DNA of 52,949 nucleotides from Polyangiaceae bacterium (GCA_046351395.1 JAXLYP010000017.1:193508-246456); one strand, 5' to 3'; positions 1,781-43,845 are shown, counted from the stretch's first letter. The notes: generated from the sequence alone by a model not told the origin. A program made the numbers and translations.

Positions 1781-3994
1781 TCACAGTCGCAAGATCGAGA
1801 GGAGGTTCGCGTAGTCGTCGGTGAAGGGGCGCGCGCCGGTCGGCGCGGCCGACCAGCCGAGCGCCTCGAGCGCGGCGCGCCTTTTGGGGGCTCGCGTCGC
1901 CGCGATCCAGCGGCTCGGGAGCGCGAGATCCTCGTCCGCTGCGGACCTCGCGCAGAGGAGGGGCGGCGCGCCCAGCGCGTCCAGCGCGGCGGCGAGCGGC
2001 CCCGCGAGATCGTAGAACCGGTTCGAGATCTGCACGGCCAGCACGCCATCGGGGGCGAGGACGCGCAGCGTGTCGGTGAGCGCCTCCATCGTGAGGAGGT
2101 GCACTGGGAGCGAGTCGCTCGAGAAGGCGTCGACGACGACCAGCGCGTACCTCTCGTCCGGCTCTGCGCGGAGCGAGAGGCGCGCGTCCCCCAGGACGAT
2201 CCGCGGGCGCTCCGGCGCGTCCGACACGTACGTGAAGAGGGTCGGGTTCGTCGCGATCGTGACGACGACCGGATCGATCTCGAAGAACGTCATCCTCACG
2301 CCGGGCTGGTCGTACGCGGCGAGCGTGCCCGCGCCGAGCCCGACCACCGCGACGTCGCCGCGCGCCTCCGCGTCGAGCGCGACGCCGAACACGTCCGCGA
2401 TCGGGCTACCTGGAGCGAAGTACGCCGTCGGCCGACGGCGCTTCTCCTGGGCCGTCCACTGCGATCCGTGCACCGTCGTCCCGCTGTAGAGGGTCGCGAC
2501 CTCGCCGCCCCGGGTCCGTCGGACCTCGCTCACGCCGAAGAAGCTCCGCCCGCGGTACGCCACCCCGGTGCGCAGCCCGAACGCGCCGATGACGAGCGCC
2601 GTGGCGGTCGTCGCGACGAGGATCCACGGTCGCGTGCCGAGCAGGAGCAGCAGCCCGCCGACCACGAGCGACAACAAACCGATCTGGCGATCCCTCCCGC
2701 CGTCCCGGACGAGGATCACGGCGAGCACGCCCGCGCCGAAGACGTAGGGACCCAGGCGCCCGGCGAACTCTCCGAGGATGGATCGGAGGTCCTGCCCGCG
2801 CGCGCCCCAGGCGTCTCGGTGGAGCGCGACCGCGACGAGCGCGCCGAGGAGAAGGATGGGGTACTCCCAGATGTCGGGGAACGCGCGCGGCGCCACGAGC
2901 GCGACGAACATCGAGCCCAGCGCGCCCCCGACGGACACGACGACGTAGAACTCGGTCGCTCGCGCGGGATCGGGGCGATCCCGCGCGAGGAGCCCGTGGA
3001 GCGCCACCACGACGACGCCGAACGCGACGAGCATGATCGGCAAGAGCGCGAGTACGGGCCCGGTCGACGCGCCGTAGAGGACCCAGAGCAACGTGATCAT
3101 CGCGGGCGCCGCGACGATCGCCCAGCGGACGACGCGTCGGGTCGAGAACGCGACGATGAAGGAGCCGATGTAGAGCGCGAGCGGCACGACCCAGACGAGC
3201 GGCGCCGCCACGAGATCCGTCGACAGGAACGTGGTCACCGCGGAGAGCAATCCCGAAGGGACCGCGGAGAGGAGCAACCAGCGCGCGCGCCGTCGATGCG
3301 TGATGCGGGGGGGCTCGGCCCGGGCCTCGTCCAGTGTGGCGCGGGACCCGGTCGGCGAGAGAGCGCGCCCCCTCCACCTGGTGACCGCCGCGAGCGCGAG
3401 CGCCAAGACGAGCGCGGCGTACGCCGCGAACCACGCGTGGCGCTGCGCGCGGAGCCCGAGGCGGGGCTCGACGAGGAGAGGGTAGGCGAACAGCGCGAGC
3501 ATCGAGCCCGCGTTGCTGATCGCGTAGAGCCAATAGGGATCGCGCTCGCCCTGCGGTCCGAGCGAAGACCGATACCAAGCCGAGAGCAGCGGGGTGGTCG
3601 CGGTGAGGACGAACAACGGCAGCCCGATGACGACGACGAGCAGCCGGAGCAGCTCCAGCGCGGCGGGGAGCGACCCGATGCCGAGATCGGAGAGGCGATC
3701 CGGGACGAGGAGCGACAGCGCGAGCCCGAGCGACGCGAGCCCCATGTGCACGATCGGCCCCCAACGACCGAGCCGCGTGATCGAGAGGTGCGCGTAGACG
3801 TAGCCCGCGACGAGGCAAATCTGGAAGAAGCAGAGCGCGGTAGCCCAGACCATCGGCGCGCCGCCGAAGACCGGCAGGAGGAGCTTTCCAACGAGCGGCT
3901 CCACGCTGAACAGCAAGAACGCGGAGAGCCCGATCGACACGGCGAAGGGCGCGGTCGTGCCGAGCGTCGTGGAGCGGGGGGGCGGAAGCGGCAC
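1781..3994 (-). CDS. Fused multi-TM (MFS-like) / spermidine-synthase-like polyamine aminopropyltransferase family protein
   Basis: The C-terminal domain carries the spermidine-synthase (SAM-MTase fold) signature: VAVVGLGAGTLAAYDQPGVRMTFFEIDPVVV...RIVLGDARLSL...YALVVVDAFSSDSLPVHLLTMEALTDTLRVLAPDGVLAVQ. The N-terminal ~500 aa is a run of hydrophobic helices. Stop TGA at 1781-1783 (...DDYANLLSILRL*). Start assigned to a GTG at ~3994 (VPLPPPRSTTLGTTAPFAVSIGLSAFLLF...); this is uncertain, and an alternative is the Met at ~3853. Confidence 0.75.
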   Translation of the reverse strand: MPLPPPRSTTLGTTAPFAVSIGLSAFLLFSVEPLVGKLLLPVFGGAPMVWATALCFFQICLVAGYVYAHLSITRLGRWGPIVHMGLASLGLALSLLVPDRLSDLGIGSLPAALELLRLLVVVIGLPLFVLTATTPLLSAWYRSSLGPQGERDPYWLYAISNAGSMLALFAYPLLVEPRLGLRAQRHAWFAAYAALVLALALAAVTRWRGRALSPTGSRATLDEARAEPPRITHRRRARWLLLSAVPSGLLSAVTTFLSTDLVAAPLVWVVPLALYIGSFIVAFSTRRVVRWAIVAAPAMITLLWVLYGASTGPVLALLPIMLVAFGVVVVALHGLLARDRPDPARATEFYVVVSVGGALGSMFVALVAPRAFPDIWEYPILLLGALVAVALHRDAWGARGQDLRSILGEFAGRLGPYVFGAGVLAVILVRDGGRDRQIGLLSLVVGGLLLLLGTRPWILVATTATALVIGAFGLRTGVAYRGRSFFGVSEVRRTRGGEVATLYSGTTVHGSQWTAQEKRRRPTAYFAPGSPIADVFGVALDAEARGDVAVVGLGAGTLAAYDQPGVRMTFFEIDPVVVTIATNPTLFTYVSDAPERPRIVLGDARLSLRAEPDERYALVVVDAFSSDSLPVHLLTMEALTDTLRVLAPDGVLAVQISNRFYDLAGPLAAALDALGAPPLLCARSAADEDLALPSRWIAATRAPKRRAALEALGWSAAPTGARPFTDDYANLLSILRL

Positions 3995-4203
3995 CAGGCG
4001 CCGCCATGCTATCGGGTCTCGGGGACCGGGGGCTCCTCCGCACGCTGGTACGAACGTACCTGAGCGGATCGCCGCCGCACCTGGTGGCGAATCCCGCGCT
4101 GGACCGGACCTTTTTGGACCCCGCGCGATGCGCAAGCCAATGACCGCGCAAGGATGGTTCGAATGTCCAATGAGTCCACCGAGGGGCGTGCCGCCCGGAG
4201 CGT

Positions 4204-4322
4204 TCTTGTGGGCTCCTCGCGCGCTTCGACGAGCTCCTCCCTCAGGAGGCCTTGGGGCGGCCCGTGAGGTAGAGGCCCATCCCGCCCTTCTCGGACGCCC
4301 ACGCATAGCGCTCGGTGCCGGG
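4204..4322. repeat. Direct repeat copy B (~115 bp) inside the 3' end of the methyltransferase gene
   Basis: See the feature at 1388..1499. This copy also contains a small hairpin, cctcc-ctca-ggagg, at ~4235-4250. Confidence 0.8.
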
Positions 4323-5039
4323 GACCCCGCGCGCGATGTCCAGGAGCTCCTCGGGCGCGTACGCGCGGAGCGCGGACACCGTCCCGTCCCACGCGAAGAG
4401 GAACGGGATGAGCGGCACCAAATAGGTGAGGAGCCAGCGCGACGCGCGCACCGGACGCACGAGCGGGACGAGCGCAAACGGCAGCGTGAAGAGCACGAGC
4501 GCGTTCGGCAAGAGCGCAAACGGCGACAGCGGCGCGGGCATCTTGCGCATCATCGGGTTCGCGGCGACGTCGAAGAACGCGACGTGCGCGCCGCTCGCGA
4601 CCGCATCCGCGAGGAGCGAATGGATCGCCTCGGGCGGGAAGTGGTGGAGCGCCCCGAACATGGTCCGCAAACCTCGGAGATCGGAGGGGACGTGCATCGC
4701 GTCGACCGGCTCGCCGTGCACCGCCACGTTCGCGAGTCCCCGCGTCCGCCCGATGGTCGCCTCATTGGGGTGCCGATCGGTCAGCAGGAACCGCACGTCC
4801 GTCCGCCCTCGCGCCGCGAGCGCCCTCGCCATGAAGAGCGCCCCTCCGCCGCCGCCGGAGCAGAGGTCGACGACCTGCTGCCCGCCGCTCGCGTCGATCG
4901 CGCGCTCGAGGACGTCGACGAGCGGCTGGTAGAACTTCACCAGCCCGAAGAAGGTATCCAAGAGGTCCGTCCCGCCGTCTCGAATCGCGCCCGGCATCCA
5001 GTCGAGATCCTCGAGCTCCACGAAGTGCACGCGTCTCAT
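4242..5039 (-). CDS. Class I SAM-dependent methyltransferase with a C-terminal membrane segment
   Basis: Motif I VVDLCSGGGGGALFMARAL and post-I acidic residue in RFLLTDRHP. The C-terminus is hydrophobic (LLPNALVLFTLPFALVPLV...LTYLVPLIPFLFAW). ATG (cat on the + strand) at 5037-5039 gives MRRVHFVELEDLDWMPG...; stop at 4242. Confidence 0.8.
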   Translation of the reverse strand: MRRVHFVELEDLDWMPGAIRDGGTDLLDTFFGLVKFYQPLVDVLERAIDASGGQQVVDLCSGGGGGALFMARALAARGRTDVRFLLTDRHPNEATIGRTRGLANVAVHGEPVDAMHVPSDLRGLRTMFGALHHFPPEAIHSLLADAVASGAHVAFFDVAANPMMRKMPAPLSPFALLPNALVLFTLPFALVPLVRPVRASRWLLTYLVPLIPFLFAWDGTVSALRAYAPEELLDIARGVPGTERYAWASEKGGMGLYLTGRPKAS

Positions 5040-5154
5040 GGCCCGGGAGGATAGGGTCGTTCCTGCGCCGGAGAAGCGCGGCAGATCGCCGCGCCGGTGC
5101 GCTCTTGTCAGCCTCGGCCGCCCCGGCCGTCGTCTCCCCGCGAGGAGGTCAGCC

Positions 5155-5511
5155 ATGTCGGCTGCACGAAGGAGCTCGCTCGCTGCGGCGCTCACGCTCG
5201 CCGTGGTCCACGCGAACGAGGCGAACGCCGAGGAGCCGTTCCCGATCATTTCGCTCCGCGACGCGACGGTCGGCGTCGGTTCGACGGGAGCGCCCGCAGG
5301 GTGGATCGCGCTGCCGACGCTCGCGCTCTCGCCCTCGGGCGGGTCGAGCCTGCGCCCCGTTCTCGAGATCGACGCGATCGACGTCCAGCGCGGCGCCGTG
5401 GTCCCGATCCTTCGCCTCGAGCTGAAGCTCCCCGTCGCGGACTTCGTGCTCGACTGGAGCCCCGACCCCGCCCTCGGGACTCACGCCCGCCTCCGCGTGT
5501 CCCTGAATTGA
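5155..5511 (+). CDS. Small secreted protein (118 aa), function unknown
   Basis: SD gaggagg at 5143-5149 lies 6 nt upstream of ATG 5155. Signal peptide MSAARRSSLAAALTLAVVHANEANA. Stop at 5509-5511. Confidence 0.7.
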   Translation: MSAARRSSLAAALTLAVVHANEANAEEPFPIISLRDATVGVGSTGAPAGWIALPTLALSPSGGSSLRPVLEIDAIDVQRGAVVPILRLELKLPVADFVLDWSPDPALGTHARLRVSLN

Positions 5512-5647
5512 CCGCTCGCCGCTCCGCCGCGCTGAATTTCGCGCCCGCCCCTCGGAGCGTCGTTCGCAAACCTCGGAATTTCGACCTCCCGACCAGCACG
5601 AAAGCCGCGAGAGGGATTTCATTCCGAGCTCGTCACAACGCGCACCG

Positions 5648-6859
5648 ATGCGACTCCGAAGCGCGCTCCTCCCCGCCTTGGGTGTATTGTCTGTCGCGTG
5701 TGGGGGCGGCGCCTCACCTCGTGTGCAGGAGCCGAAGCCGACTGGGCAGTGGCGGGGATCATCGACTGGGCAGTGGACGGGATCCCCGACCGGTGTGCCG
5801 TGGGGTGGCTCCATCGTCGCGGGCGGCCTTGCGATCCTGCGGAGCGGCGCGTGTCCGCTCACGGAGATCGCGCCGGGGCAGTGGGCCCAAGCGGCGTGCG
5901 CGCCCATCGTCCAGTTCAAGAACGCGCTGCCCTATCGGGCGCCACCTTTCGTGGCGAGCGCGCTCCCCGCCTATGTAGACCACCGCGCCTCGGGGCTCGA
6001 GGGCCCCGTGAAGAACCAACAGAACGTGGGCGCGTGCGGCGCCTTCTCCGTCACGACCGCGATGGAGAACGCGCTCCGCAAGCAAGGCCGGCAGGACGTC
6101 CTCTCGGCGCTCCATTACTACGTGAAGTACGGCACGGTCGCCGGCACCGGCGAGAACGGCGACGCGATCACCACGGACGCCGTCTGGCCGTACGACCCCG
6201 TGAAGGCATGCCTCTTGTCGCCCGACGAGGGCGGGGACACGTGCGATCAGGACTTCGGCGTCGTGCGGGGCGGCGGTCGCGGCGATCCGCGGTTGCGCGC
6301 CGAGCAGGCGAACGCAGACAGTCGCGGGCTCGTGCGGCTCGACCGCGCGTGGAGCATCGATCCCCGGGACGTAGACGCCATCGCGGCGATCCTCGCCGCC
6401 GGCGACGACGTCGACGCGACCTTCGCGTTCGATCGGGATGCGTGGAGCTACCGGGGGATCCAGAGCGGCGTCTTCAGCCACTACCAGGGCCCCAAGGACT
6501 ATGGTCATGGCGTCGTCCTCGCGGGGTATCGCTGGGTGAACGGAGAGCGCCAGTTCCTCATCCACAACAGCTGGGGCGCCGACTGGGCGGAGAGCGGCTA
6601 TGCGTGGATGGCGGAGAGCGACGTCCGCGCGAACCTTTGCTCGGCCTACAAGATCGATCTCGCCGAAGCGGGGACGCCGCGCCGGCCCGAGGAGACGGCG
6701 CACTATTGTCCGGGCGGGCTCCCTCCCATCGGCAACCAATGTATCCCCCTCCCGCAAGCCTCGACCGCGTGTCCGCCGGGCACGATCGGCCTTCCGGGTC
6801 TTTGTCTGCCCACCGGGGGCATCAATCCCCTCGGAGACCTCGCGCCAGGTGCGCCGTGA
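5648..6859 (+). CDS. Papain-like (C1 family) cysteine peptidase lipoprotein
   Basis: Lipobox LSVAC-GG. Catalytic residues are present in papain-like context: Gln/Cys in QQNVGACGAFSV, His in HGVVLAGY, Asn in NSWGADWAESGYAWM. Confidence 0.85.
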   Translation: MRLRSALLPALGVLSVACGGGASPRVQEPKPTGQWRGSSTGQWTGSPTGVPWGGSIVAGGLAILRSGACPLTEIAPGQWAQAACAPIVQFKNALPYRAPPFVASALPAYVDHRASGLEGPVKNQQNVGACGAFSVTTAMENALRKQGRQDVLSALHYYVKYGTVAGTGENGDAITTDAVWPYDPVKACLLSPDEGGDTCDQDFGVVRGGGRGDPRLRAEQANADSRGLVRLDRAWSIDPRDVDAIAAILAAGDDVDATFAFDRDAWSYRGIQSGVFSHYQGPKDYGHGVVLAGYRWVNGERQFLIHNSWGADWAESGYAWMAESDVRANLCSAYKIDLAEAGTPRRPEETAHYCPGGLPPIGNQCIPLPQASTACPPGTIGLPGLCLPTGGINPLGDLAPGAP

Positions 6860-7703
6860 GCTCGGTCGCGACGCGCGTGTGGAGCTCGAGCACGGTGAAC
6901 CAATCGATGAGCTCGATGCGGAGCGCGCTCACGGCCGACGCGGCCCGCGCCGTGTGCGCGCGGGGGACCTCCGCGAGCGCATCGAGGAACCCCATGTCCG
7001 TCCCCGCTCCGACGGTCGCGCGCTCGCCGCGCGCGGTCTCGCACTCGACGAGCCCCGCGGTGACGCGGATCCAGTGGTTCGCGACATCTCCCGCGCTCCA
7101 GAGGACGTCGCCTCGCTGAAACCGCACGTCCGTGGACGCGCTCGCGATCTCCGCGAGGCCCTCCACGTTCGCGCGCGCGATGGGCGATCTCCGGAGCTGG
7201 ATGACCCGCTCCACGACCGTCAGCTCCTCGTCCCGAAACGTGCCGTGCTCCGGCGGATCGGAGCGATTGGGCAATGGCCCGCGCTCCGCGAGGAGGTCCC
7301 GCGCGAGGCCCCGCAGCACGAAGCGCTGGAGCGCGAAATCCCGTTGGAGCGCGATCCGGACCGCGTCTCCGGGGATCTCGAGCGCGAGCGTCCGTGCCTC
7401 CGTCGTCGCGCTCAGGTGATCGCGCTCCGTGAGGAGCGCGGTGAACCCGAGCGCGCGCTGGCTCTCCACGCGGCCGACCAGGGTGCCTTCGTGCTCCACG
7501 CGCACGCTCCCCTCGAGCACGTAGAGCACGGACGTGATCGGATCGGTCGCGCGCCAGATCACCGCGCGCGGCCGAAACCGCCGGTAGCGGGAGCGCTCCG
7601 CCATGAGCAGGAGAGTGTCCACGCTGACCGATCGAAGATCGGGCATCGAGCCGAGGAGGCGGGCGCGCGCCTCGACGCTCGCGAGCTCGGGCTCAGCTTG
7701 CAT
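6822..7703 (-). CDS. Tandem cyclic-nucleotide-binding (CAP/Crp-effector-like) domain protein
   Basis: Two cNMP-binding-like units (LLGSMPDLRSVSVDTLLLMAE...AVIWRATDPITSVLYVLEGSVRVEH and ...FQRGDVLWSAGDVANHWIRVTAGLVECE) with no DNA-binding HTH. The start overlaps the stop of the upstream transporter gene by 11 nt; the 3' end overlaps the peptidase 3' end by ~38 nt (convergent). Confidence 0.8.
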   Translation of the reverse strand: MQAEPELASVEARARLLGSMPDLRSVSVDTLLLMAERSRYRRFRPRAVIWRATDPITSVLYVLEGSVRVEHEGTLVGRVESQRALGFTALLTERDHLSATTEARTLALEIPGDAVRIALQRDFALQRFVLRGLARDLLAERGPLPNRSDPPEHGTFRDEELTVVERVIQLRRSPIARANVEGLAEIASASTDVRFQRGDVLWSAGDVANHWIRVTAGLVECETARGERATVGAGTDMGFLDALAEVPRAHTARAASAVSALRIELIDWFTVLELHTRVATELTAHLARGLRGD

Positions 7704-10515
7704 GCGGAGTGTCTCGTGGTGCAGAAGGGAACAGCGACGTCGAGGACGGAATCGAGGCTCGGCGCGTCACCTCCGGCGCCTCGGGTTCGGCCGCGCGATC
7801 GGGAGCTCCAGCGAGGAGGGCGCGGGCGCGCGAGAAGTCGGTCACGTCCGGCTCCTCCCTACAGAGCTCCTCGATCCGCGGGAGCTGACTCGTCATCCCG
7901 AGCTCCGCCGCGTGATAGGCAGCGAACTTGCGGAGGATCGCGCTCGAGCTCCCCAGCATCTGCGCGATCGCCGTCTCGTAGTCGAGATCCACGGATGCAT
8001 GGAACTCCTTCCCGCGCGTGCGTCGCTCGACGTCGTCGACGTCATCGACGAGCCCGATGACGGCGTCGCGCAGCGGATTCTTGAGGACGATGTGGATGAG
8101 CTCGACGGCGGTCGCGCGGTGCTCCTTCCCGCCCCGCTCGATGCTCGTGAAGATCGCGTCGATCTCCTCGTTCGGGTTGAGCAGCGCCAGCAGCCGGAAC
8201 ACGCGACCCACCATGTGTCGCTGCTTGTCTCGCAGCAAATCCACGAGCAGGCCGTGCCCGACCGTCGCTCGGCGTGGGTCCTCCTCCCGCCCGCGCCGGA
8301 GCGCGACGAACCGATCGAAGGACCGGTAGGCGCGGGCGACCGTGCGCTGGATCTCCTCCCCGAGGAGGCGCTCGTCGAGGCGCGTCTCGGGCCGCGCGAC
8401 GACGATCTGTCCGAGCGCGAGGATCGAGCGATACCGCACCATCCCATCGGGCTCCTGTCCGAGGTTCGCGAGCAGGATCTCGGGCGCCTCGGGCGAGTCG
8501 ATGTCCGCGAAGAGGCTCGGCACGAGCCTCCGCACCGCCCGCGGGCGATCCCGATCGCGGAGCGCGCGGACGATCGCGCCCGCGCCCGCGGGGCCCGCGG
8601 CGCTCAGCGCGAGGCGGACGTCCGCGCCCACCTGACTGTCTGCGAGCAGGTCGACCAGGGTGTTCGCGGACGTCTCGGTCGCGAGCCCGCCGAGCGCCGC
8701 GATCGCCGCGCGGCGGACGTCGAGCTCGCGCGCGCGCGTGAGCTCGACGATCTCGGGCTCGAAGCGGGTCGCCTTGCGCCAGCCGACGACCTCGGCCAGG
8801 AGGCGCCGGCTCTCCACGCTGCCCTCCGAGACGATCCGCCCGAGCTCGTGGTGAGCCTCTTCCGCCTCCATCATGGAGAACGCAGCCATCGTCGTGAGGA
8901 TCGCCGCGCGGATGTCCGGCGAGGTCTCCCGCGCGAGCTGCTCTCTCCACCGCGTCGCGTCCGGCGCGAGCACCGCGCGAGCGGCCATCGCCTCGGCGCG
9001 GACGCGGATGGAGGGGTGGCGATCCAAGTGGGTGAGCGCGTGGAGCGCGACCTTCCGACCGCGCACGCCGAAGATCCGGAGCGCGGTCACGACGACGGTC
9101 TCCGACGGGTGATACAGGATGAGCCCCGGGATGACGTGGGCCTTCCCCTCCCGATCCAAGATCCGTAGCGAAGACACGACCGTGCTCTCCGCTTCGCTCT
9201 CGAGCGACTCGAGGAGCGACTCGAGGGAGGCCATGTCGAGCCGCATGAGCGCGCCCGCGAGCCGCCTCCGACCGGACGCGAGGGCGTCCTTGAAGAGCTG
9301 CGCGTAGTCGCCTCGGAGCCATGTCGCGAGGACGACCGCGCCCGCGGCCGTGACGACGAGGAGGACGGCGAGCCATCGCGGTGGCAGCTCGGTCGCCACC
9401 CCGACGAGGATGACGACCGAGCCCACCATCTGGGCGCCCCGTTGACCGAGCGCGTCCATGAAGCTCTTGGCGACCGTCCGCGGACCGTCCTCGAGGGGCA
9501 CGAGCAGGAGCTCCGCGGCCGTGCGGTGCACGCTGAAGCGCATGCTGCCGTCCACGGCCTTCGTGATCACGGCGGGCGCGAGCGTGCCCGTGATCGCGAC
9601 GCCGAGGCCCCCGGCGACGAGCCCGAACGGCAGCACCGCGAACACCAACGGGAGAGGCAAGCGCGCGACGAGCGATCGGACCGCGAACACCTGAACGCAG
9701 ACCGAGATCACGTTCAGGACCACGTTCACGCGGCCGAACACGCGCGCGAGCTGGTCGTGCGCGAAGTGGGCGGTGATCTGCGACTTGAAGATGAAGTCCG
9801 AGATCGTGACGGCGATCGTGATGAGGCCGCAGACCGCGACCACCCGTCGGATGTAGGGGTGGCGAAGGGCCGTGCCGAGGCGCTCGCCGAGCGTCCCGTC
9901 GCGCCCGTCGTGCTCGCCGTCGCGCGCGCGTTCGTCGAGGCCGCCGCTCGAGAACAGCATCGGCATCCAGGCGGCGCCGAAGAACAGCACGCCCGCGAAG
10001 AGGGAGAGGTTCGCCGGCGCGACCCACGTGACGAGCCCGACCGCGCCGCTGCCGAGGATCGCGCCGAGCCCGGCTCCGAGCCCGATCATCCCGTAGAGCC
10101 GTTTGGCCTGGCGAATCGAGAAGAGCCCTCCAACGAGGGACCAGAAATGGATGAGGACAATCGTCGAGAGGACGCCCGACCAGATGTAGAAGACATAGAG
10201 CCCGACCTCACCCAGGCTCGGCAGCGCACGGGAGAGCGCGATCGTCCCGAGCGACGAGGCGACCGTCCAGCCGATCAGCACGCGCCGCGGCGTCGTGCGC
10301 CGGAACACGGCTTGGGCGCGCGTCGCGACGAGCGTCGCGGCGGCGAGCGCGACGTACACCCAAGGGAGTCGGCTCGTCGGGATGTGGGCGAGGAACATCG
10401 CGTCGCGCGTCGCCTCGAGGATGCTGTGGCCGGCCACGAAGACGAACAGGAAGACAAAGGCGGTGATCGCATCCCGCCGCTCCGATCGCCGCACCGGGAA
10501 GAGCCGCCGCAGCAC
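7693..10515 (-). CDS. TLC/NTT-family (Npt1/Npt2-like, ATP/ADP-translocase-like) transporter with a C-terminal HEAT-repeat domain
   Basis: The N-terminal ~430 aa are polytopic with the NTT signature near helix 1 (AFVFLFVFVAGHSILEATRDAMFL, cf. LLLTAYYLIKPVREGL in the paralogue at 21720). The C-terminal ~450 aa are HEAT/PBS-lyase-like repeats (EAMAARAVLAPDATRWREQLARETSPDIRAAILTTMA...VRRAAIAALGGL...). GTG start at 10515, 1 nt after the stop of the upstream gene. Confidence 0.85.
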   Translation of the reverse strand: MLRRLFPVRRSERRDAITAFVFLFVFVAGHSILEATRDAMFLAHIPTSRLPWVYVALAAATLVATRAQAVFRRTTPRRVLIGWTVASSLGTIALSRALPSLGEVGLYVFYIWSGVLSTIVLIHFWSLVGGLFSIRQAKRLYGMIGLGAGLGAILGSGAVGLVTWVAPANLSLFAGVLFFGAAWMPMLFSSGGLDERARDGEHDGRDGTLGERLGTALRHPYIRRVVAVCGLITIAVTISDFIFKSQITAHFAHDQLARVFGRVNVVLNVISVCVQVFAVRSLVARLPLPLVFAVLPFGLVAGGLGVAITGTLAPAVITKAVDGSMRFSVHRTAAELLLVPLEDGPRTVAKSFMDALGQRGAQMVGSVVILVGVATELPPRWLAVLLVVTAAGAVVLATWLRGDYAQLFKDALASGRRRLAGALMRLDMASLESLLESLESEAESTVVSSLRILDREGKAHVIPGLILYHPSETVVVTALRIFGVRGRKVALHALTHLDRHPSIRVRAEAMAARAVLAPDATRWREQLARETSPDIRAAILTTMAAFSMMEAEEAHHELGRIVSEGSVESRRLLAEVVGWRKATRFEPEIVELTRARELDVRRAAIAALGGLATETSANTLVDLLADSQVGADVRLALSAAGPAGAGAIVRALRDRDRPRAVRRLVPSLFADIDSPEAPEILLANLGQEPDGMVRYRSILALGQIVVARPETRLDERLLGEEIQRTVARAYRSFDRFVALRRGREEDPRRATVGHGLLVDLLRDKQRHMVGRVFRLLALLNPNEEIDAIFTSIERGGKEHRATAVELIHIVLKNPLRDAVIGLVDDVDDVERRTRGKEFHASVDLDYETAIAQMLGSSSAILRKFAAYHAAELGMTSQLPRIEELCREEPDVTDFSRARALLAGAPDRAAEPEAPEVTRRASIPSSTSLFPSAPRDTPHAS

Positions 10516-10516: not shown

Positions 10517-11965
10517 TCAGAACCCCGTCGTCCCGCCGACGAGGAACCGGACGCTCTCGGGCTCGCCGCCCTCCGCGAACGGCTTCGTCCCGAAGCCCAA
10601 GAGGAGGTTCAACGCGTGGTCACGGTGATTCGGCGATTGGAACCCCCCGACGAACGAGAACCGGAGTCGCTCGAGTTCGAAGTCCTCGAAGTCGCGCCCG
10701 AACACGTTCCCCACCTGCGCGCGGAGCGTGGCGTCGACGAACGACCAGATGGGCCAGGTGTACGTGACGCTCGCCGCGGCGGACGTCTCGCCGAGGAGGC
10801 GCCCGGGGGTGAAGCCGAGGAGGGGCTCGTCGTCGGGCACGCGATCGGTCCGACCGCTCCCGATGAGCTCCGTGAACGGCACGCGCGCCGTGCTCGAGAA
10901 GGGCTCGATCGCGCGGACGTCCACGAGGAGCCCGAGCACGCGCCGCGTCCCCGTGACGTCGATGAACCCGCCCACGGACCCGCCCACCTGCGCCCACTCG
11001 ACGTGCGACCCGACGTCGCTCCCGAGCTCGGCGTGCGCGTCGAGCCCGACCCCGGAGCCCGGCCCTGGGCGCGGCTGTCGCGAGTCGAGCACGACGCGCC
11101 CACCGACCTTCACCGCGGTGTATCCGGCGAACCCGTCGGGGAGGGGATAGAGCCCTCGAGCGACCGCGCGGGAGATGGGCAGCGTAGGACACTCGTGTGG
11201 CCATACCGGGCAGCTCTCGTCGGAGAACGAGTGGTGCCGGACGACGGCCCAAGCCTCCACGAAATTGGCCTTTCGCGGCTCCACGTGGGTCCGAATGCCG
11301 CCTCCGACCGAGCGCTGCTCGAACCTCGACTCGTCCGCGTAGCGAGACCGGTACCCCACACCGTAGAACAGGTAGTCGGCGCGGACGACCCCGTCCGCCT
11401 CGAGCTGCAGGTTGGAGCGCACGCGGTGAGAGCCGTCGGGTTCGACCTCGACGTCGAGCGGGACGCGGTCGACCACGCGAGCTGCGAAGTACCTCTCGCC
11501 CCCCGTCGCGACCGACGCGCGGAGTTGATTGTCTGTCACGAGGAAGTCGTCGTAGAAGTGGTAGAGGCCGACGCTCGGACGAAAACCGAACTCGTAGAAC
11601 GCCGTCGGGATGAGGCCCACGTTGTGGTGAGGGCCGAACGTGAAGAAGTCGGTCACCTTCGCCACGATGCCCTCGCGGTCGATCACCGTGGTGATCGCGC
11701 CGAGGGGGCGCCGGATGACGTAGTCCGAGACCACGTAGAGCGGCGCGAAGAGGACGCGGGGGATCCAGAGCGCGCCCTCCGCCGCGGTCGTCTCGCGCGG
11801 TCTGCCCTCGTAGTCCTGCGGTGGGCGCTTCTCTCCGGGCGGCCGGGATGGATCCTCGGGGAGCACGGCGGGGTGCTCGGGGACGTCCCCCCGCGCCGGG
11901 GGCGCCGCCGCGAGGGCAGCGCCGAACGCGAAGACCATGGCACCGAGCGCCTTGGGCGAGTTCAT
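10517..11965 (-). CDS. Secreted beta-barrel-like outer-membrane protein, paralogue of 23156..24616
   Basis: Signal peptide MNSPKALGAMVFAFGAALAAAPPARG. Alternating hydrophobic pattern; C-terminus ...SVRFLVGGTTGF* ends in Phe. Clear paralogy with the 23156..24616 product (PGEKRP.QDYEGRPRETT.AE.ALW.PRVL ... RFSFVGGF.SPNHRDHALN.LLGFGT.PFA.GG.PES.RFL.GGTTGF*). The ATG overlaps the stop of the upstream lipoprotein (ATGA). Confidence 0.75.
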   Translation of the reverse strand: MNSPKALGAMVFAFGAALAAAPPARGDVPEHPAVLPEDPSRPPGEKRPPQDYEGRPRETTAAEGALWIPRVLFAPLYVVSDYVIRRPLGAITTVIDREGIVAKVTDFFTFGPHHNVGLIPTAFYEFGFRPSVGLYHFYDDFLVTDNQLRASVATGGERYFAARVVDRVPLDVEVEPDGSHRVRSNLQLEADGVVRADYLFYGVGYRSRYADESRFEQRSVGGGIRTHVEPRKANFVEAWAVVRHHSFSDESCPVWPHECPTLPISRAVARGLYPLPDGFAGYTAVKVGGRVVLDSRQPRPGPGSGVGLDAHAELGSDVGSHVEWAQVGGSVGGFIDVTGTRRVLGLLVDVRAIEPFSSTARVPFTELIGSGRTDRVPDDEPLLGFTPGRLLGETSAAASVTYTWPIWSFVDATLRAQVGNVFGRDFEDFELERLRFSFVGGFQSPNHRDHALNLLLGFGTKPFAEGGEPESVRFLVGGTTGF

Positions 11966-13779
11966 TGGAGGGCCGCGCCCGGCTCGTCGGGCCTCTGGAT
12001 GGCGACCATCTTGAAGTGGGAGGACGCCCCGAGATCGTACAAATGAACGCGCAGCGGACCCCGCGCCGCGCCGTTCGAGACGTCGAGCACCGCGTATCGA
12101 AGGGGGTGATCGTCGGGCAGCGAGCGGTCGTCCACGACGCGCGGTAGATCCACGCAGACCGTCGCATCGTCGCCGAGGCTGACGGGGAGGGCCTTTCGCT
12201 GGTCGAGGTCGAGCCCCGTCCGGAGCTCGGCGGCGTACGTGAACCGCGTCCTCGGCCAGGTGGTCGTCTTGTGCGCGAGATCGGTCGCGCAGACGCGGTC
12301 GCCCTCGACGGTCACGTCCGCCAGCGGGGATACGACGCTGAAATACCGCGTGAGGATCTCGTCCCTTCGTTGGATGAGTGTCCGCGTGAGGAACTCCGTC
12401 GCGCGAGGGTCCGTGTAGTCGCCGACCCGCACCGCGGCCGCGATGTTCGCGTCGGTGAAGCGCGACAGGATGCGCGCCGCCCACGCGCCGTCCTCCTCCG
12501 TCATGCGAGCGAACGCGGGGTTCGGGTAGCCGCCCTTCCAGTCCTCGGGCACGAAGTCCGGCCTGAAATAGTCGAACATCGGGAGCTCGGTGTTCGCGAC
12601 GGGCCGGTCCCATGGGCGCTCGAACGAGCCGAGCGTCAGGAGGTCGATCGCCACGTCCTCCGGATCGAAGTAGTAGCTGTGGTTGATCCTCCGGTTCCAG
12701 CTCTCCCATTGCCAATGGCTGCCAAAGCAGTCCCCGAGGTCGATGTACCAATGTGTCGTCCGCCCCGGAGAGGAGTCCTTCGACTCGGGGTCCACGGCGT
12801 CCCAGGTGGTCATCGTGTTTTGCTCGCGCGAATCGAAGTGCCCGAGCCACGCGGCCATGAGCCGCGCTCCGCGGAGATCCCTTCGGTCCTCGTGAGGGAT
12901 GATGTCGTTGGGATCGTCTTCTCGCGTCTCCTCGTACCGGAAGGGGCCGATCGCGCGTCCTGGGAGCCACCGCGACGCCACCATTCGTACGAGCCCACCT
13001 CGCTTCTGTGCGCTGTCGAGGATCGCCTGGAGCTTCCCGTCGTCGAACGGCATTTTGGTGCCCGTATTGTCTGCGTAATCGAGCCCGGGCTCGAGCCTGA
13101 GCCAGGACTTGTCGACGTAGACAATCGTGTCGCACGCGGTCCACCAGCCCGCGGCGTGGTAGAGCCTGGACGCGATGGATGTCGCCCCGGTCGCCTTCTC
13201 GCCTTCGCCCTCGGCGTCTGCCTTCAGCATGAACTTGCCGACGCCCTCGATCTCGACCCGAAAGCCCGGGTTCGCGCCGTTCGCCTTGCCCATGTCGACG
13301 CGCCAGGCGCCCGGTTCGTGCGGGGCCGTGGCGATCGTCTTGTGGCCGCAGCTCCCGCGCGTGATCTCCTCGTCGGTCATCGGCCTCACGCCGATGCGGT
13401 TCGTGAACCAGCTCGAGTCGGGCACCTCGTCGACCGCGTTCACGTTCCGCGCAGCGAAGCCGACGTCCGCGGCGAAGAACTTCACGATGGGCCGGAAGAT
13501 GGTCTTGTCGGCGACGTCCCATAGGAACGGGGACTCGTACTCTTCGGGCCGACAGAGTTGCTTCTTCGCGTCCTTCGGATCGGGGCGACACGGCACTCGG
13601 ACCGCCCGCAGATCCTCGTCGATCCAGACCGGGTCGCGGAGCGGGAACCGCCGGATGCCACCGCACCCCGCGACCGAGGTCGCCGCGCCGCTCGCCAGCG
13701 CCGCGCCGATCACGACTCGGCATGCGGCTCGCAGAATCTTTACGGCCCCCGCCTCGCGATGAGCCCACCGAATCGCCAT
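11962..13779 (-). CDS. Periplasmic lipoprotein with protein-kinase-like (APH/ChoK-type) motifs
   Basis: Lipobox VKILRAACRVVIGAALASGAATSVAGC. Motifs in kinase-like order: FRVEIEGVGKFMLKAD (beta3-Lys-like), EKATGATSIASRLYHAAGW (alphaC-like), WLGHFDSREQNTM (HxDxxxxN catalytic-loop-like), HWYIDLGDCFG (metal-binding Asp-like). ATG assigned at 13779, which overlaps the divergent PAP2 start (see findings). Confidence 0.65.
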   Translation of the reverse strand: MAIRWAHREAGAVKILRAACRVVIGAALASGAATSVAGCGGIRRFPLRDPVWIDEDLRAVRVPCRPDPKDAKKQLCRPEEYESPFLWDVADKTIFRPIVKFFAADVGFAARNVNAVDEVPDSSWFTNRIGVRPMTDEEITRGSCGHKTIATAPHEPGAWRVDMGKANGANPGFRVEIEGVGKFMLKADAEGEGEKATGATSIASRLYHAAGWWTACDTIVYVDKSWLRLEPGLDYADNTGTKMPFDDGKLQAILDSAQKRGGLVRMVASRWLPGRAIGPFRYEETREDDPNDIIPHEDRRDLRGARLMAAWLGHFDSREQNTMTTWDAVDPESKDSSPGRTTHWYIDLGDCFGSHWQWESWNRRINHSYYFDPEDVAIDLLTLGSFERPWDRPVANTELPMFDYFRPDFVPEDWKGGYPNPAFARMTEEDGAWAARILSRFTDANIAAAVRVGDYTDPRATEFLTRTLIQRRDEILTRYFSVVSPLADVTVEGDRVCATDLAHKTTTWPRTRFTYAAELRTGLDLDQRKALPVSLGDDATVCVDLPRVVDDRSLPDDHPLRYAVLDVSNGAARGPLRVHLYDLGASSHFKMVAIQRPDEPGAALQ

Positions 13780-14649
13780 CCGATCGCCGTGCGCGCGGCC
13801 GAGCTCCTCGGCTCGAGTCCGCTGCTCGTGCTCGCGGGCGTGGGCGTGTTCTCGATCGGGCTCGTCCTCGTTCTCGTCGTCCTCGCGAGGTGGATGAGCG
13901 CGCGGGGCCTCGGCTGGCGGAAGGCCCTCTTTCGACGCGCCGCGCGCGCTGTCGGCGCCGCCCCGAGCGCGCGCGCGAGGCTCTCGCGGCTCGTCCGGCT
14001 CGAGTACGAGCTCGTCCACCTGGGACTTGGGCTCGCGCTCCTCGCCGGGCTGGTCGTGTTCGTGGCGCTCGCGGTCTCCGTCGTCGACGACGGCGCAGTC
14101 GCGGCGTTCGACGAGTCGCTCGCGCGTGCGGTCCACCGATCGACGCCGCCCGAGCTCGTGCGCGTCATGCTCGTCGCGACCTCGCTCGGCGGCGGTGAGG
14201 CCGTCCTCGTCGTCGCGGTGGTCGTCGCGGTGGGGCTCCTGGTGCGGCGGCGATGGCACCTCGCCATCGGCTGGATCACGGCGGAGGCGGGCGCGGGCCT
14301 CTTCAACGCGCTCCTCAAGTCGCTCTATCGGCGCGCGCGTCCCACGCTCGACGATCCGTTCACGAGCGCATCCGGGTGGAGCTTCCCGAGCGGACACTCC
14401 ATGGGGACGATCGTCACCGCTGGGATGCTCGCTTATGTGTTCTCCCGGTTCTACCCGCCGGGGTGGCCGCGCTTCGTGGCCGTCTTCCTCGCGACGCTGT
14501 GGACGCTCGTCATTGGGTTCAGCCGCGTGTGCCTCGGCGTCCACTACGCGAGCGACGTGCTCGGAGGGTTCGCCGCGGGCGCGGTGTGGCTCGTCGTTTG
14601 CGTTTCGGGCCTCGAGGTGGCGTTGCGCCCCAATCGCTCGGCCGTTTAG
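13759..14649 (+). CDS. PAP2-family integral-membrane phosphatase
   Basis: All three PAP2 motifs are present: KSLYRRARP, SFPSGHS, SRVCLGVHYASDVLGG, across six hydrophobic segments. Alternative GTG start at 13789. Confidence 0.8.
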   Translation: MSPPNRHPIAVRAAELLGSSPLLVLAGVGVFSIGLVLVLVVLARWMSARGLGWRKALFRRAARAVGAAPSARARLSRLVRLEYELVHLGLGLALLAGLVVFVALAVSVVDDGAVAAFDESLARAVHRSTPPELVRVMLVATSLGGGEAVLVVAVVVAVGLLVRRRWHLAIGWITAEAGAGLFNALLKSLYRRARPTLDDPFTSASGWSFPSGHSMGTIVTAGMLAYVFSRFYPPGWPRFVAVFLATLWTLVIGFSRVCLGVHYASDVLGGFAAGAVWLVVCVSGLEVALRPNRSAV

Positions 14650-14773
14650 TCCGTCCCAGTCGTGACGTTTTGCCCCGATTCGTGGCGTTGGTGCGCGCCA
14701 GTCTGCCCTCGAGACGGGTGCCGCGCAGTCGCCAAGTCCGTCGTCCCCCATCGAAGAGAACCGAGGCCACGAC

Positions 14774-15790
14774 ATGCCAACCGTCCTGTCGCAACCGCGT
14801 CGTACCGCGCCCGCATTCGCAGCACGTTCGATGTTCTTCGGTGTCTTGATCAATGGGATCGTCCCTTCGTCCGCGCTCGCAGATCCGCAAGTGGACACAG
14901 CGCCGAGCGCTCCGACGGAGAAGGCAACCGCCGCGCCCACGCCGCTCGCCACGAAGAGCGCCGCGGAGAAGAAGCCGGACTCGCTGGATTGGGATCCGCG
15001 TTGGCCGGAGGTGAAACCCTACGAGTACATCCTCACCGGTGTGTTCGCGCTCGCAGCGATCGGTGGACAGGCGATCCCCGGCGGCCCGAGGTGGACGGGG
15101 CACAACGCGTTCGACGACGCGGGCCGCGAGGCGTTGCTCTTGCCGGACTTCGAGGATCAGGAGCGCGCGAAGGACTTCAGCGACGTGGGCCTCGTGATCC
15201 TCGTGAACCAAGCGCTGATCGACAATCTCTTCGTCACGTGGTGGGCGCGTGATCACCCGAAGACCGCATGGCAGCTGTCCGTGATCGACACCGAGACGCT
15301 GGCGTTCAGTATCGGCGTGGACGCGCTCGTCGCCGGCGCGACGGGCCGCGAGCGCCCGTACGTCGAAGCGCTGTGCGATCAGGAGGACCACAAGAATCGC
15401 GGCTACTGCGACGGGAGCAACCGCTACCGAAGCTTCTTCAGCGGACACTCCACGGCCGCGTTCACCCTGGCGGGGCTCACGTGCATCCATCACGCGGAGC
15501 TCGGTATTTACGGCCACCCCGTCGCTGACGCGTTCGCGTGCGGCGGCGCGATGGCGACGGCGACGGGCGTCGCGCTCCTCCGTGTCGCCTCTGATCAGCA
15601 CGATCTCTCGGACGTGCTCGTCGGGGCAGTGTGGGGCACCGCGACCGGGGTCACGCTGCCGTGGCTCCTCCACTACCGGGGCGGGGCGAAGGTCGAAGAG
15701 AAGAAGCCGGACCCGCATGCCGCCGTCGAGGCCCCGCCGCCGGGCGTGGTCGTCACGCCGAGCGGCGCGTACGTCATGGGAGCGTTCTGA
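14774..15790 (+). CDS. Secreted PAP2-superfamily phosphatase
   Basis: Motifs GATGRERPY, SFFSGHS, RVASDQHDLSDVLVG. N-terminal hydrophobic signal; alternative start at the Met at 14831. Paralogue of 16722..17639. Confidence 0.8.
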   Translation: MPTVLSQPRRTAPAFAARSMFFGVLINGIVPSSALADPQVDTAPSAPTEKATAAPTPLATKSAAEKKPDSLDWDPRWPEVKPYEYILTGVFALAAIGGQAIPGGPRWTGHNAFDDAGREALLLPDFEDQERAKDFSDVGLVILVNQALIDNLFVTWWARDHPKTAWQLSVIDTETLAFSIGVDALVAGATGRERPYVEALCDQEDHKNRGYCDGSNRYRSFFSGHSTAAFTLAGLTCIHHAELGIYGHPVADAFACGGAMATATGVALLRVASDQHDLSDVLVGAVWGTATGVTLPWLLHYRGGAKVEEKKPDPHAAVEAPPPGVVVTPSGAYVMGAF

Positions 15791-15793: not shown

Positions 15794-16690
15794 ATGGGGT
15801 CCTCGAGAGAACGCCGATGGAGCGTCGCCGCGCGATCGATCTTCGTGGTCGTGATCGCCGTTCTCACCCGAGAGGCGCGCGGTCAAGTGCTCGACCTCCC
15901 GGACGCGACGACGAACCCGACCGCGCCACCGCGGGACGTGGATCAGAAGCTCCCCTATTGGGAGAGAGGAGAGATCCGGCCATTCACGTCGGCGGTGTTC
16001 GACGTCGGCGGGTTCTTCGTGCGCCCCGAGTTGAACGTCGGCTACGGGCAGCCGCACTTCAACTGGATCGGCGCGGAGATCTTCAGCAAGCTCACGCTCG
16101 GCGGCGTGACGCTCGGAGCGGGCGTCCACGGTCAGATCCCGAACGTCGACGCGCGCCTCGGCGTGCGGTCGTTCCGGTCGGCGGATCAACGCCTGCTCCA
16201 GCGCAAGAACGTGTATCGGGAGTCGGACCCGACGATCCTCGATCAGCCCGCCTCGGCCTACGACAGCGTCGACGCGGATCTCGCGGTGAACGTCCGCGCG
16301 CTCGGAGGATCCGTCAGCTTGGAGACGCGCGCGCTCGCGCTCTTCCAGGTCCCCGACGGATATGACGTCTTCGAGGACGTGTTCCGCGTCGTGGTCCGAC
16401 CGCCGCTCGTCTGGCAGGCGAAATTGACGTATGTCGTCTTCGCGGGCTGGGACGATCGCCTCGCGCTCGGGTTCACGACGGAGCTCCTCGGCGCTCCAGC
16501 GAGAGACAACCTCGTCTTCCGCGTCGGCCCGGTGCTCACCGTCGCGTTGACGGAGCACCTCCAGGCGATCGGCGGCGGCGCCTTCGCGATCCTGTACCAC
16601 GACGATCTCGGCCTCAGCGGGTCGGATCTCGGGCAGATCGGTCTGCGCTACCGTTGGGCGTCGGGAGAGCCTTACCCCGACTTCCCGTGA
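15794..16690 (+). CDS. Secreted (possibly outer-membrane beta-rich) hypothetical protein
   Basis: ATG lies 3 nt after the PAP2 stop. Signal peptide MGSSRERRWSVAARSIFVVVIAVLTREARG. Amphipathic beta-strand-like C-terminal half. Confidence 0.6.
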   Translation: MGSSRERRWSVAARSIFVVVIAVLTREARGQVLDLPDATTNPTAPPRDVDQKLPYWERGEIRPFTSAVFDVGGFFVRPELNVGYGQPHFNWIGAEIFSKLTLGGVTLGAGVHGQIPNVDARLGVRSFRSADQRLLQRKNVYRESDPTILDQPASAYDSVDADLAVNVRALGGSVSLETRALALFQVPDGYDVFEDVFRVVVRPPLVWQAKLTYVVFAGWDDRLALGFTTELLGAPARDNLVFRVGPVLTVALTEHLQAIGGGAFAILYHDDLGLSGSDLGQIGLRYRWASGEPYPDFP

Positions 16691-16721: not shown

Positions 16722-17639
16722 TCAGAACTGCCCGCCCCAGGAGAGCTGCACGGGCGGCCGCGCGGTGACGAGCGGCGCGGACGCCGCCGCGCTCGTGTTC
16801 GGGCCGTCGACGGTCTGCGTGTAGTGCAGGGCGAGGGGGACCGCGAGGCCTACCCCGTACCCGAAGAGGAAGCCGCTGATCGCGTCGCTCATCCAGTGCC
16901 GATCGGAGATGACGCGCATCCCGGCGATGGTGACGGCGAGGGCCGTCGAGCCGACGCACGCGACGACGTCGGGCGCGCCGCCCCCGTAGAGCGGGACATA
17001 GGCGTGGTGGGCGCACGTCAGCCCCGCGCCGACCGCGCTCATCGTCGCGTGACCGCTGAACCAGCTCGCGTTGACGCCGAAGGAGCCACAGTCGTACGCC
17101 CAGCCTTTGTCTGTTTGGCATCCGATCCCGGCTGGGCGCTCCCGCGCGGCGAGCCGGTGGTTCACGCGCATGACGAGATACGCGATCCCGTAGGCCTCGA
17201 GGTTCATCGCCGTCAGCTGCTGGAGCATATCGAGGTTCTCGTCGATCGCCGGGACGAGGACTCCATCGATGAGGACGGGGTAGGCGGCGCTCACGGCGAG
17301 CAAGACGTCGCTCGCGATCTGAATGCCGCGTCGATCCTTAAGCCGCGGCATCGCGACGGCGTCGCGGGCGATCTCGTCGAACAGGATGGGCCCGATCCAC
17401 CGGGGCTCGATGGGCTGTTCGGTCCCGAACTCGATGATGCCCGCGCCGGTGATCGACAGGGCGGTGAGCGTGTACTCGCCCCACACGACGCGCGGGTGGG
17501 ACTCGTCCCAGTGCAGGCGGTGCTCGTCCTTGGCCTGCGCCGCTGCGCGCTCGCATGGCGCGAAAGCTGCGAGCGCCGCGCCCAGAAGGATCGCGTGTTG
17601 GTGTCTGTGCAGCGAGGAGTTCACCAGGGGATCCGTCAC
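16722..17639 (-). CDS. Secreted PAP2-superfamily phosphatase, paralogue of 14774..15790
   Basis: Motifs AARERPAG, WFSGHAT, RVISDRHWMSDAISG. Signal peptide; ends ...SWGGQF*. The ATG overlaps the stop of the upstream small lipoprotein (ATGA). Confidence 0.8.
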   Translation of the reverse strand: MTDPLVNSSLHRHQHAILLGAALAAFAPCERAAAQAKDEHRLHWDESHPRVVWGEYTLTALSITGAGIIEFGTEQPIEPRWIGPILFDEIARDAVAMPRLKDRRGIQIASDVLLAVSAAYPVLIDGVLVPAIDENLDMLQQLTAMNLEAYGIAYLVMRVNHRLAARERPAGIGCQTDKGWAYDCGSFGVNASWFSGHATMSAVGAGLTCAHHAYVPLYGGGAPDVVACVGSTALAVTIAGMRVISDRHWMSDAISGFLFGYGVGLAVPLALHYTQTVDGPNTSAAASAPLVTARPPVQLSWGGQF

Positions 17640-42376: not shown

Positions 42377-42384
42377 GCGCGGTT

Positions 42385-43826: not shown

Positions 43827-43845
43827 AATAGTGAACCACGTTCAC
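43812..43845. promoter_or_regulatory. Two adjacent 15-bp palindromes, GTGAA-N5-TTCAC (gtgaatcatgttcac and gtgaaccacgttcac), overlapping the TetR start codon: candidate autoregulatory operator
   Basis: Read directly from the sequence; perfect 5-bp inverted half-sites, twice, 4 bp apart. Confidence 0.7.

Follow-up and report, generated by a model that had tools for sequence, protein, structure and literature searches.

A divergent NTT-family transporter with a HEAT-like tail and a tandem CNB-fold protein: a conserved gene pair in a Polyangiaceae genome and in relatives from other phyla

Introduction

Nucleotide transporters of the NTT family are best known for the uptake of host ATP by chlamydiae, rickettsiae, microsporidia and plastids. 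A further branch, the NTT-HEAT family, was described as monophyletic and widely distributed, with deltaproteobacterial members among those listed (Major, Embley and Williams, 2017; Genome Biol Evol 9:480; PMC5381601). There, a gene encoding a domain of the cyclic-nucleotide-binding type (cNBD; PF00027) lies within a few nucleotides after the NTT-HEAT gene (PF13646/PF02985), and NTT-HEAT-cNBD fusions occur, some with a duplicated cNBD; an adjustment of ATP uptake by cyclic AMP (cAMP) was already proposed for NTT-HEAT-cNBD, and no function was assigned (PMC5381601). Our literature search found no functional work on NTT-HEAT proteins after 2017. Here, we report on a pair of this type, an NTT-HEAT transporter gene and a gene for a protein with two tandem cyclic-nucleotide-binding (CNB) folds, in a 52,949-nucleotide stretch of DNA from a Polyangiaceae bacterium (GCA_046351395.1, JAXLYP010000017.1:193508-246456), hereafter the window.

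The window pair has the same domain order as the described family (PMC5381601), NTT then HEAT and then the cNBD gene, with no difference in kind, and is another member of the NTT-HEAT(+cNBD) arrangement published in 2017. The novelty that a reading of the window from its sequence alone (the sequence-only reading) had seen in this arrangement therefore does not stand, as both the pair and the cAMP-gating idea were in print (PMC5381601). What is new with respect to the 2017 description is that the partner is a tandem CNB protein, that the pairing holds in 80 of 80 loci with overlaps of -4, -8 or -11 nt recurring at the junction, and that both phosphate-binding cassettes (PBCs) of the partner are non-canonical. 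We consider it somewhat probable that the two genes form one module, in which a divergent NTT-family (TLC/MFS; MFS, major facilitator superfamily) inner-membrane transporter works with a dedicated soluble tandem-CNB regulatory subunit.

Results

The transporter gene and the tandem-CNB gene overlap by 11 nucleotides

Genes of the window, which has about 70% G+C, were called from open reading frames (ORFs), their translations and the G+C content of third codon positions (GC3). The pair and its junction are as follows.

Positions 7693..10515, minus strand: NTT-HEAT gene, 940 aa, GTG start, TGA stop at 7693-7695 (ORF and translation)
Positions 6822..7703, minus strand: tandem-CNB protein gene, 293 aa, ATG start, no output domain (ORF and translation)
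Positions 7693..7703, minus strand: stop/start overlap of 11 nt, ATGCAAGCTGA, with the CNB-gene ATG at 7703-7701 and the transporter TGA at 7695-7693 (sequence)

GC3 is of coding type, about 0.9, in both ORFs (0.91 for 7693..10515). The NTT-HEAT protein is 100% identical to a protein from a Polyangiaceae metagenome-assembled genome that carries the NCBI name 'Npt1/Npt2 family nucleotide transporter', and its orthologues align from residue 1 of the window protein. In the CNB frame, ATG 7703 is the first start codon past the upstream in-frame stop and the only start placed upstream of the family-conserved residues R13, L15 and L17. Therefore, the 11-nt overlap is real and does not arise from start calling or annotation, and it is likely the site at which translation of the CNB gene is coupled to that of the transporter.

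The pair is kept in all 80 related loci

A scan with one genome per species found relatives of the transporter in 427 genomes, and the best 80 loci of these 427 were analysed; they span Myxococcota, Acidobacteriota, Gemmatimonadota, Krumholzibacteriota, Eisenbacteria, Latescibacterota and Binatia. By tblastn, a tandem-CNB gene was found directly downstream on the same strand in 69 of the 80 loci, and with a hidden Markov model of the orthologues directly downstream in all 80, the two loci cut by contig ends included. The junctions between the two genes are distributed as follows.

61 of 80 loci: overlap of 1-17 nt (-4 nt in 21, -8 nt in 15, -11 nt in 18)
11 of 80 loci: gap of 0-8 nt
7 of 80 loci: larger apparent overlap
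1 of 80 loci: continuous in-frame fusion (L071)

Altogether, 72 of the 80 loci have a junction of between -17 and +8 nt, and independent gene calls in a relative of 33% identity (P0095, loci L081-L083) give the 11-nt NTT-HEAT/CNB overlap once more. The flanking genes vary between clades, and therefore the conserved unit is the NTT-HEAT/CNB pair itself. A functional coupling of the transporter and CNB genes is strongly supported, and this coupling probably includes translational coupling. The functional link that the sequence-only reading had drawn between transporter and CNB protein is thus strongly supported by the universal pairing, the tight junctions, the in-frame fusion in L071 and the published fusions.

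Two further candidate fusions were rejected. The apparent fusion in L012 is merely a long open alternative frame in GC-rich DNA, and P0059 (1205 aa), the only fused protein found in the databases, has a garbled, frame-shifted C-terminus and is not usable as a model of a natural fusion.

The membrane domain belongs to a divergent NTT branch

Three parts can be distinguished in the transporter.

Positions 9256..10515, minus strand: membrane domain, aa 1-420, predicted 12-helix NTT/TLC-type MFS fold (Pfam TLC, family profile against PDB, AlphaFold2, Foldseek)
Positions 7813..9234, minus strand: predicted cytoplasmic HEAT-like helical solenoid, aa 428-901, about 470 aa (Pfam, profile hits, AlphaFold2)
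Positions 7696..7812, minus strand: non-conserved C-terminal tail, aa 902-940, with the start of the CNB gene inside it in another frame

The Pfam family TLC (PF03219) matches the transporter at 32.3 bits against a cut-off of 21, aligned to aa 106-158, and PF03219 also stands in the precomputed Pfam entry of the identical database protein. The NCBIfam model of NTP/NDP exchangers, TIGR00769, was scored at 21.8 bits against a cut-off of 387.2. A family profile built from the membrane domains of 11 members matched, over profile positions 95-423, the solved structures of Chlamydia pneumoniae NTT1 (9j3n, E = 1.5e-21) and Arabidopsis NTT1 (9j3j, E = 2.1e-21). The motifs common to NTT-HEAT and the solved NTTs are AK(R/K)xY (K138), (D/E)xx(F/W)KS (D240, K244), E(L/M)xxxPL (E335) and KxxIDV (K350), and in the profile alignment K138, D240 (Glu in NTT1), K244, E335, K350 and D354 lie opposite identical or like-charged residues of the solved proteins. 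Five of these, namely K138, D240, K244, E335 and K350, are charged intramembrane positions kept with the solved NTTs; within the NTT-HEAT family, K138 and E335 do not vary, and conservation reaches at least 90% at each of D240, K244 and K350.

An AlphaFold2 model of the transporter, made from 95 sequences (predicted local distance difference test, pLDDT, 91; predicted template-modelling score, pTM, 0.71), has 12 long helices over aa 10-420, a low-confidence linker at aa 416-426, a solenoid of helical repeats and a disordered tail. In a Foldseek search of the PDB with this model, NTT1 structures took ranks 1-3 (TMt 0.66-0.73), followed by generic MFS transporters. Profile and predicted fold together place the transporter in the NTT family, and its sequence marks it as a divergent NTT branch and not a canonical ATP:ADP antiporter. 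Because the charged NTT motifs are kept, the cargo may be an anion of nucleotide-like kind. Simple ATP/ADP exchange is made less likely by the very low score with the canonical-exchanger model and by the free-living way of life of the hosts.

The HEAT-like solenoid forms the tail of the transporter

The part behind the membrane domain matches Pfam HEAT_2 at 46.2 bits and also HEAT (PF02985), has a weak NblB-like NCBIfam match, and gives profile matches to HEAT-type alphaRep proteins down to E = 4e-38. In the AlphaFold2 model, paired helices run all along aa 428-901 with pLDDT above 90, and orthologue alignments show family-invariant residues in this solenoid, P463...L467-Y468-H469-P470 and E805. 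The alignments end near aa 870-905, and the tail is predicted to be disordered from about aa 909 (pLDDT below 50 at aa 909-913 and 915-940). The anatomy given in the sequence-only reading, a 940-aa NTT-like transporter with a long HEAT tail whose stop overlaps the start of a gene for two CNB domains and no output domain, is accordingly that found with Pfam and the models.

The partner consists of two CNB folds and no further domain

Within the 293-aa partner, Pfam cNMP_binding (PF00027) matches twice, at 70.7 bits, and no other domain was matched. Its AlphaFold2 model, made from 40 sequences (pLDDT 92, pTM 0.87), contains two complete CNB folds and no further domain, with PBC helices in the barrels at aa 87-92 and 239-244.

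Positions 7281..7676, minus strand: CNB domain 1, aa 10-141 (AlphaFold2 secondary structure)
Positions 6828..7217, minus strand: CNB domain 2, aa 163-292 (AlphaFold2 model)

Among solved structures, the model comes closest in fold to the tandem modules of CNB domains in PKG, PKA-R and Epac, with TM-scores of only 0.34-0.44 because the two domains are differently oriented. The cAMP-independent PKA-R of Trypanosoma is among these fold matches, nucleoside-bound structures included, and the CNB domains of MloK1 and HCN are matches at the level of sequence. A HMMER scan of 1.84 billion representatives gave about 970 clusters (50% identity) of the CNB protein at E <= 1e-30, and in the top 150 clusters nearly all proteins are standalone, 290-340 aa long and matched end to end. 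By these matches, tandem-CNB proteins without an output domain are a defined family, and such an output-less family of about 300 aa fits a subunit that works via protein contacts.

Both ligand pockets are non-canonical, and that of domain 2 is family-specific

The canonical PBC reads F-G-E-[LI]-A-L-x-x-x-x-P-R-[AST]-A-[TS], in which the Glu touches the ribose 2'-OH and the Arg touches the cyclic phosphate. The two cassettes of the window protein are located as follows.

Positions 7401..7448, minus strand: domain 1 PBC, aa 86-101, G86-F-T-A-L-L-T-E-R-D-H96-L-S-A-T-T
Positions 6942..6992, minus strand: domain 2 PBC, aa 238-254, G238-F-L-D241-A-L-A-E-V-P-R248-A-H-T-A-R-A

When the family profile was aligned with PKG (HMMER), the PBC Glu of domain 1 fell opposite F, L or G and the PBC Arg opposite a variable position; the window protein has F87 and H96 at these two places. 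For domain 2, R248 coincides with the PBC Arg, and F239 with the Glu position, in phmmer alignments with 2pqq (G-E-L-S-L-F-D-P-G-P-R-T-A-T) and Epac1 (G-Q-L-A-L-V-N-D-A-P-R-A-A-T). Residues were counted over 179 members of the CNB family, mostly from a library of 50%-identity representatives, in the numbering of the window protein.

Position 86, domain 1, cassette Gly: G in 176 of 179
Position 87, domain 1, canonical Glu position: F 63, G 37, L 28 of 179; Glu not among the six commonest
Position 96, domain 1, canonical Arg position: G in 104, R in 11 of 179
Position 238, domain 2, cassette Gly: G in 179 of 179
Position 239, domain 2, canonical Glu position: L/A/G/N/I/M; Glu not among the six commonest (n=179)
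Position 241, domain 2, acidic residue at G+3: E 101, D 53 of 179 (154/179, 86%)
Position 247, domain 2, Pro before Arg: P in 103 of 179
Position 248, domain 2, canonical Arg position: R 138 (77%), Y 19, H 14 of 179
Position 249, domain 2, family-specific: W in 97 of 179
Position 250, domain 2, family-specific: Y 104, F 26 of 179
Position 252, domain 2, cassette Ala: A in 152 of 179 (85%)

Additionally, W202 (168/179) and E273 (176/179) are conserved in domain 2, whose family signature is G-x-x-[ED]...P-R-W-Y; the Arg is followed by W-Y in the family and by A-H in the window protein, instead of the canonical [AST]-A. Canonical cyclic-nucleotide binding by domain 1 is, judged from these residues, unlikely. 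The pocket of domain 2 is under selection as a family-specific site that keeps the phosphate-binding Arg and is otherwise non-canonical; a phosphate-bearing ligand would be plausible for it, and cAMP or cyclic GMP (cGMP) would be possible. Judged by the condition that the sequence-only reading had itself set, the presence of conserved cassette residues, the inference from a CNB fold to a cyclic nucleotide fails in part: the CNB fold and the Arg of domain 2 are there, while domain 1 lacks both Glu and Arg and domain 2 has a hydrophobic or small residue in place of the Glu.

The genes around the pair vary between clades

Upstream of the pair on the minus strand lie two genes of the following kind.

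Positions 11962..13779, minus strand: geneA, putative lipoprotein with lipobox ...VAGC, about 605 aa (frame plot, translation)
Positions 10517..11965, minus strand: geneB, signal peptide, C-terminus ...GGTTGF, 482 aa (frame plot, translation)

GeneA overlaps the start of geneB by 4 nt (ATGA) and the geneB TGA stands 1 nt before the transporter GTG, so that geneA, geneB, transporter and CNB gene make up a tight four-gene run with the pair at its end. Neither geneA nor geneB has a Pfam match even at E <= 10 or a significant PDB match, and geneB has no NCBIfam match either; one of the searches listed only two chance capsid matches, at E of about 1-2. A PI3K/PI4K-like pattern in geneA, 'GHFDSREQN ... 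IDLGDCFG', was seen by eye only and no tool supported it. From its signal peptide and C-terminal Phe, geneB could encode an outer-membrane barrel. Homologues of geneB adjoin the pair in L023, L035, L049 and L066, and those of geneA lie at most 8 kb from it in 10 loci. At its other end the pair meets a Peptidase_C1 (papain-family) gene (5648..6859, plus strand), which is convergent with the CNB gene; their 3' ends overlap by about 38 nt on opposite strands.

About 11 kb away lies a second cluster with a short transporter, and three phosphatase genes stand between the two clusters.

Positions 21720..23159, plus strand: second, short TLC/MFS transporter, 479 aa, without HEAT tail and without CNB partner
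Positions 23270..24616, plus strand: geneB paralogue, 62% identity, immediately behind the short TLC gene
Positions 13558..14649 (plus strand), 14774..15790 (plus strand) and 16722..17639 (minus strand): three PAP2-superfamily phosphatase genes (family scan)

The short protein is 23% identical to NTT-HEAT aa 109-422 (tblastn) and matches Pfam TLC at 60 bits over profile positions 148-487, plus MFS_1; a short TLC gene occurs near the pair in 12 of the 80 loci and also in L081-L083. Among Polyangiaceae-type loci, PAP2 genes accompany the pair in nine, DUF2252 in six and a gene without family assignment (window 15794..16690) in at most nine, and they occur in variable sets with a short TLC gene, geneA and sometimes geneB. 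In L081-L083 (P0095, positions 2060..8852), which belong to an unrelated lineage, the order is short TLC/MFS, alkaline phosphatase (PF00245), NTT-HEAT, cNMP_binding and NTP_transf_9. The recurring phosphatases and the second TLC transporter hint at organophosphate or nucleotide scavenging, limited to a clade.

Signalling genes also follow the CNB gene in some loci: a large hybrid histidine kinase (GAF-REC-PAS-HisKA-HATPase-REC) in L008, L009, L014 and L031 (about 11650..15550), and a GGDEF diguanylate cyclase in L034 (11698..14748). Such neighbours are not conserved across the family.

Elsewhere in the window, a 573-aa protein (26076..27797, plus strand) has a zinc ribbon at its N-terminus and an FGE-sulfatase (formylglycine-generating-enzyme-like) domain at its C-terminus, together with a Ser/Thr protein kinase domain, and a 912-aa ORF (1781..4519, minus strand; GC3 0.87, coding-type) has no significant Pfam match. 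The GC skew climbs to +0.11 to +0.17 at 42-48 kb and flips to -0.11 from 48 kb on (window about 42000..52000), which may be a change of coding strand or a replication-related switch.

Discussion

Based on the pairing, the predicted folds and the pocket residues, we propose the following working of the transporter/CNB module. The CNB gene would be translated by coupling at the 11-nt overlap, so that the CNB protein is made alongside the transporter, and the protein would dock on the HEAT/C-terminal helical domain; the published NTT-HEAT-cNBD fusions (PMC5381601) provide a 'Rosetta stone' argument for such an interaction. Domain 2 would bind a small, probably phosphate-bearing ligand in its family-specific pocket (G238, D/E241, P247, R248), and domain 1, with its degenerate pocket, would serve as a structural or interaction element. 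Upon binding, ligand occupancy would shift how the HEAT/CNB assembly acts on the cytoplasmic face of the transporter, and transport would thereby be opened or closed; what is carried would probably be a nucleotide or an organophosphate related to it. The topology agrees with this model, because the C-termini of MFS proteins are cytoplasmic, so that the solenoid of about 470 aa would extend the transporter into the cytoplasm, and because the translated CNB protein shows no apparent N-terminal signal peptide.

Several observations weigh against this proposal, or against parts of it. The TLC match of the transporter spans only 53 aa, and together with the TIGR00769 score far under the cut-off this means that the cargo may be something other than a nucleotide. 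Domain 2 lacks the PBC Glu, although this alone is not decisive against cAMP, because Epac lacks the Glu as well and still binds cAMP. The window copy has A249 and H250 in place of the family W249 and Y250, and it could bind its ligand weakly or not at all. A scan of window genes showed no adenylate or guanylate cyclase among those it covered.

The readings that compete with the proposed module differ mainly in what the CNB protein does. According to the suggestion of Major et al. (2017), which was also what the sequence-only reading had favoured, a canonical cAMP or cGMP sensor of PKA-R/CRP type gates NTT-mediated uptake of ATP or nucleotides. The two CNB folds scoring above the Pfam cut-off, the likeness to the tandem modules of PKG, PKA-R and Epac, the Arg of domain 2 at the canonical G+10 within P-R-A as in Epac, and the example of Epac, which does without the Glu, all speak for it, but domain 1 lacks both key residues family-wide, Glu is never among the commonest residues at its position in domain 2, and the usual Ala at R+2 has given way to a conserved Tyr/Phe. 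Many CNB-fold proteins with such changes bind other ligands, for example haem (CooA), chlorophenol acetate (CprK), 2-oxoglutarate (NtcA) or nucleosides (trypanosome PKA-R). We regard a canonical sensor as possible but doubtful. A more far-reaching version of our own proposal, which we hold to be rather unlikely as a whole, is that domain 2 senses an organophosphate or a nucleotide that is not cyclic, perhaps the very compound transported or a product of it; the pair would then be a substrate-feedback-gated MFS transporter with a HEAT scaffold and a repurposed tandem-CNB subunit, set in Polyangiaceae within a larger, envelope-spanning locus for scavenging organophosphates or nucleotides, to which a short TLC transporter, PAP2 phosphatases, a lipoprotein and a secreted protein that ends like an outer-membrane protein would also belong. 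That the CNB protein is instead a ligand-free pseudo-receptor, a constitutive structural subunit or a chaperone of the HEAT tail, would agree with the family-wide degenerate pocket of domain 1, with the departure of the window domain 2 from the family consensus at 249 and 250, and with the missing output domain. However, G238, E/D241, R248, A252, W202 and E273 are strongly conserved in about 180 members, of which those newly added are separate 50%-identity clusters, and this conservation of domain 2 is hard to explain without a function of the pocket, which makes a pseudo-receptor improbable.

Two further explanations concern the cargo and the pairing itself. If a cyclic mono- or dinucleotide were the cargo, delivered or sensed by the CNB protein for import or export, the sole pointers to it would be that a nucleotide-transporter fold occurs together with a CNB fold, and the GGDEF protein after the pair in one related locus (L034); no consistent link to a cyclase or phosphodiesterase exists in the window or the related loci, the pocket residues are non-canonical, and CNB domains are not known to bind cyclic dinucleotides through the PBC. 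We give this cargo very little credence. Short same-strand overlaps are common in compact bacterial operons, and the two genes could on that ground be mere operon neighbours with no direct functional link. But their pairing in 80 of 80 loci over distant phyla despite clade-specific flanking genes, and the existence of in-frame fusions (L071; PMC5381601), leave a mere neighbourhood with hardly any probability.

The proposed module matters beyond the window, as free-living bacteria widely carry the NTT-HEAT branch (427 genomes at species level in the one scan), and the invariable tandem-CNB partner, with pockets that differ from standard cAMP/cGMP sites, narrows the experiments needed. If the ligand were non-cyclic, this would be another re-use of the CNB fold for a different signal and a new kind of MFS transporter regulation.

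The two proteins resemble, and depart from, three groups of known systems. With Arabidopsis NTT1 (PDB 9j3j/9j3l/9j3m) and Chlamydia pneumoniae NTT1 (9j3n/9j3o) the transporter shares the 12-helix MFS-type fold, with profile homology from TM3 to TM12 (TM, transmembrane helix), but it is only about 15% identical to the classical NTT ATP/ADP translocators, which have neither a HEAT tail nor a CNB partner and belong to intracellular parasites or the plastid, whereas the host of the window pair is a free-living member of the Polyangiaceae. Like the PKA R subunits, PKG and Epac, whose CNB folds regulate a separate effector, the partner has two consecutive CNB folds; unlike them, it has no dimerisation/docking or inhibitor segment, its cassettes lack the Glu and that of domain 1 also the Arg, and its presumed target would be the tail of a transporter, while in kinase-regulating tandem CNB modules it is a kinase. 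Altered cassettes with a non-cyclic ligand have a precedent in the Trypanosoma PKA-R. Finally, in MloK1, the HCN/CNG channels and the sperm Na+/H+ exchanger SLC9C1, a cytoplasmic CNB domain controls a membrane transport protein, but each of these has one canonical CNB domain, in fusion with the channel or exchanger, whereas in the window an MFS/NTT transporter is paired, probably via the HEAT solenoid, with a tandem-CNB protein that is separate from it and has non-canonical pockets.

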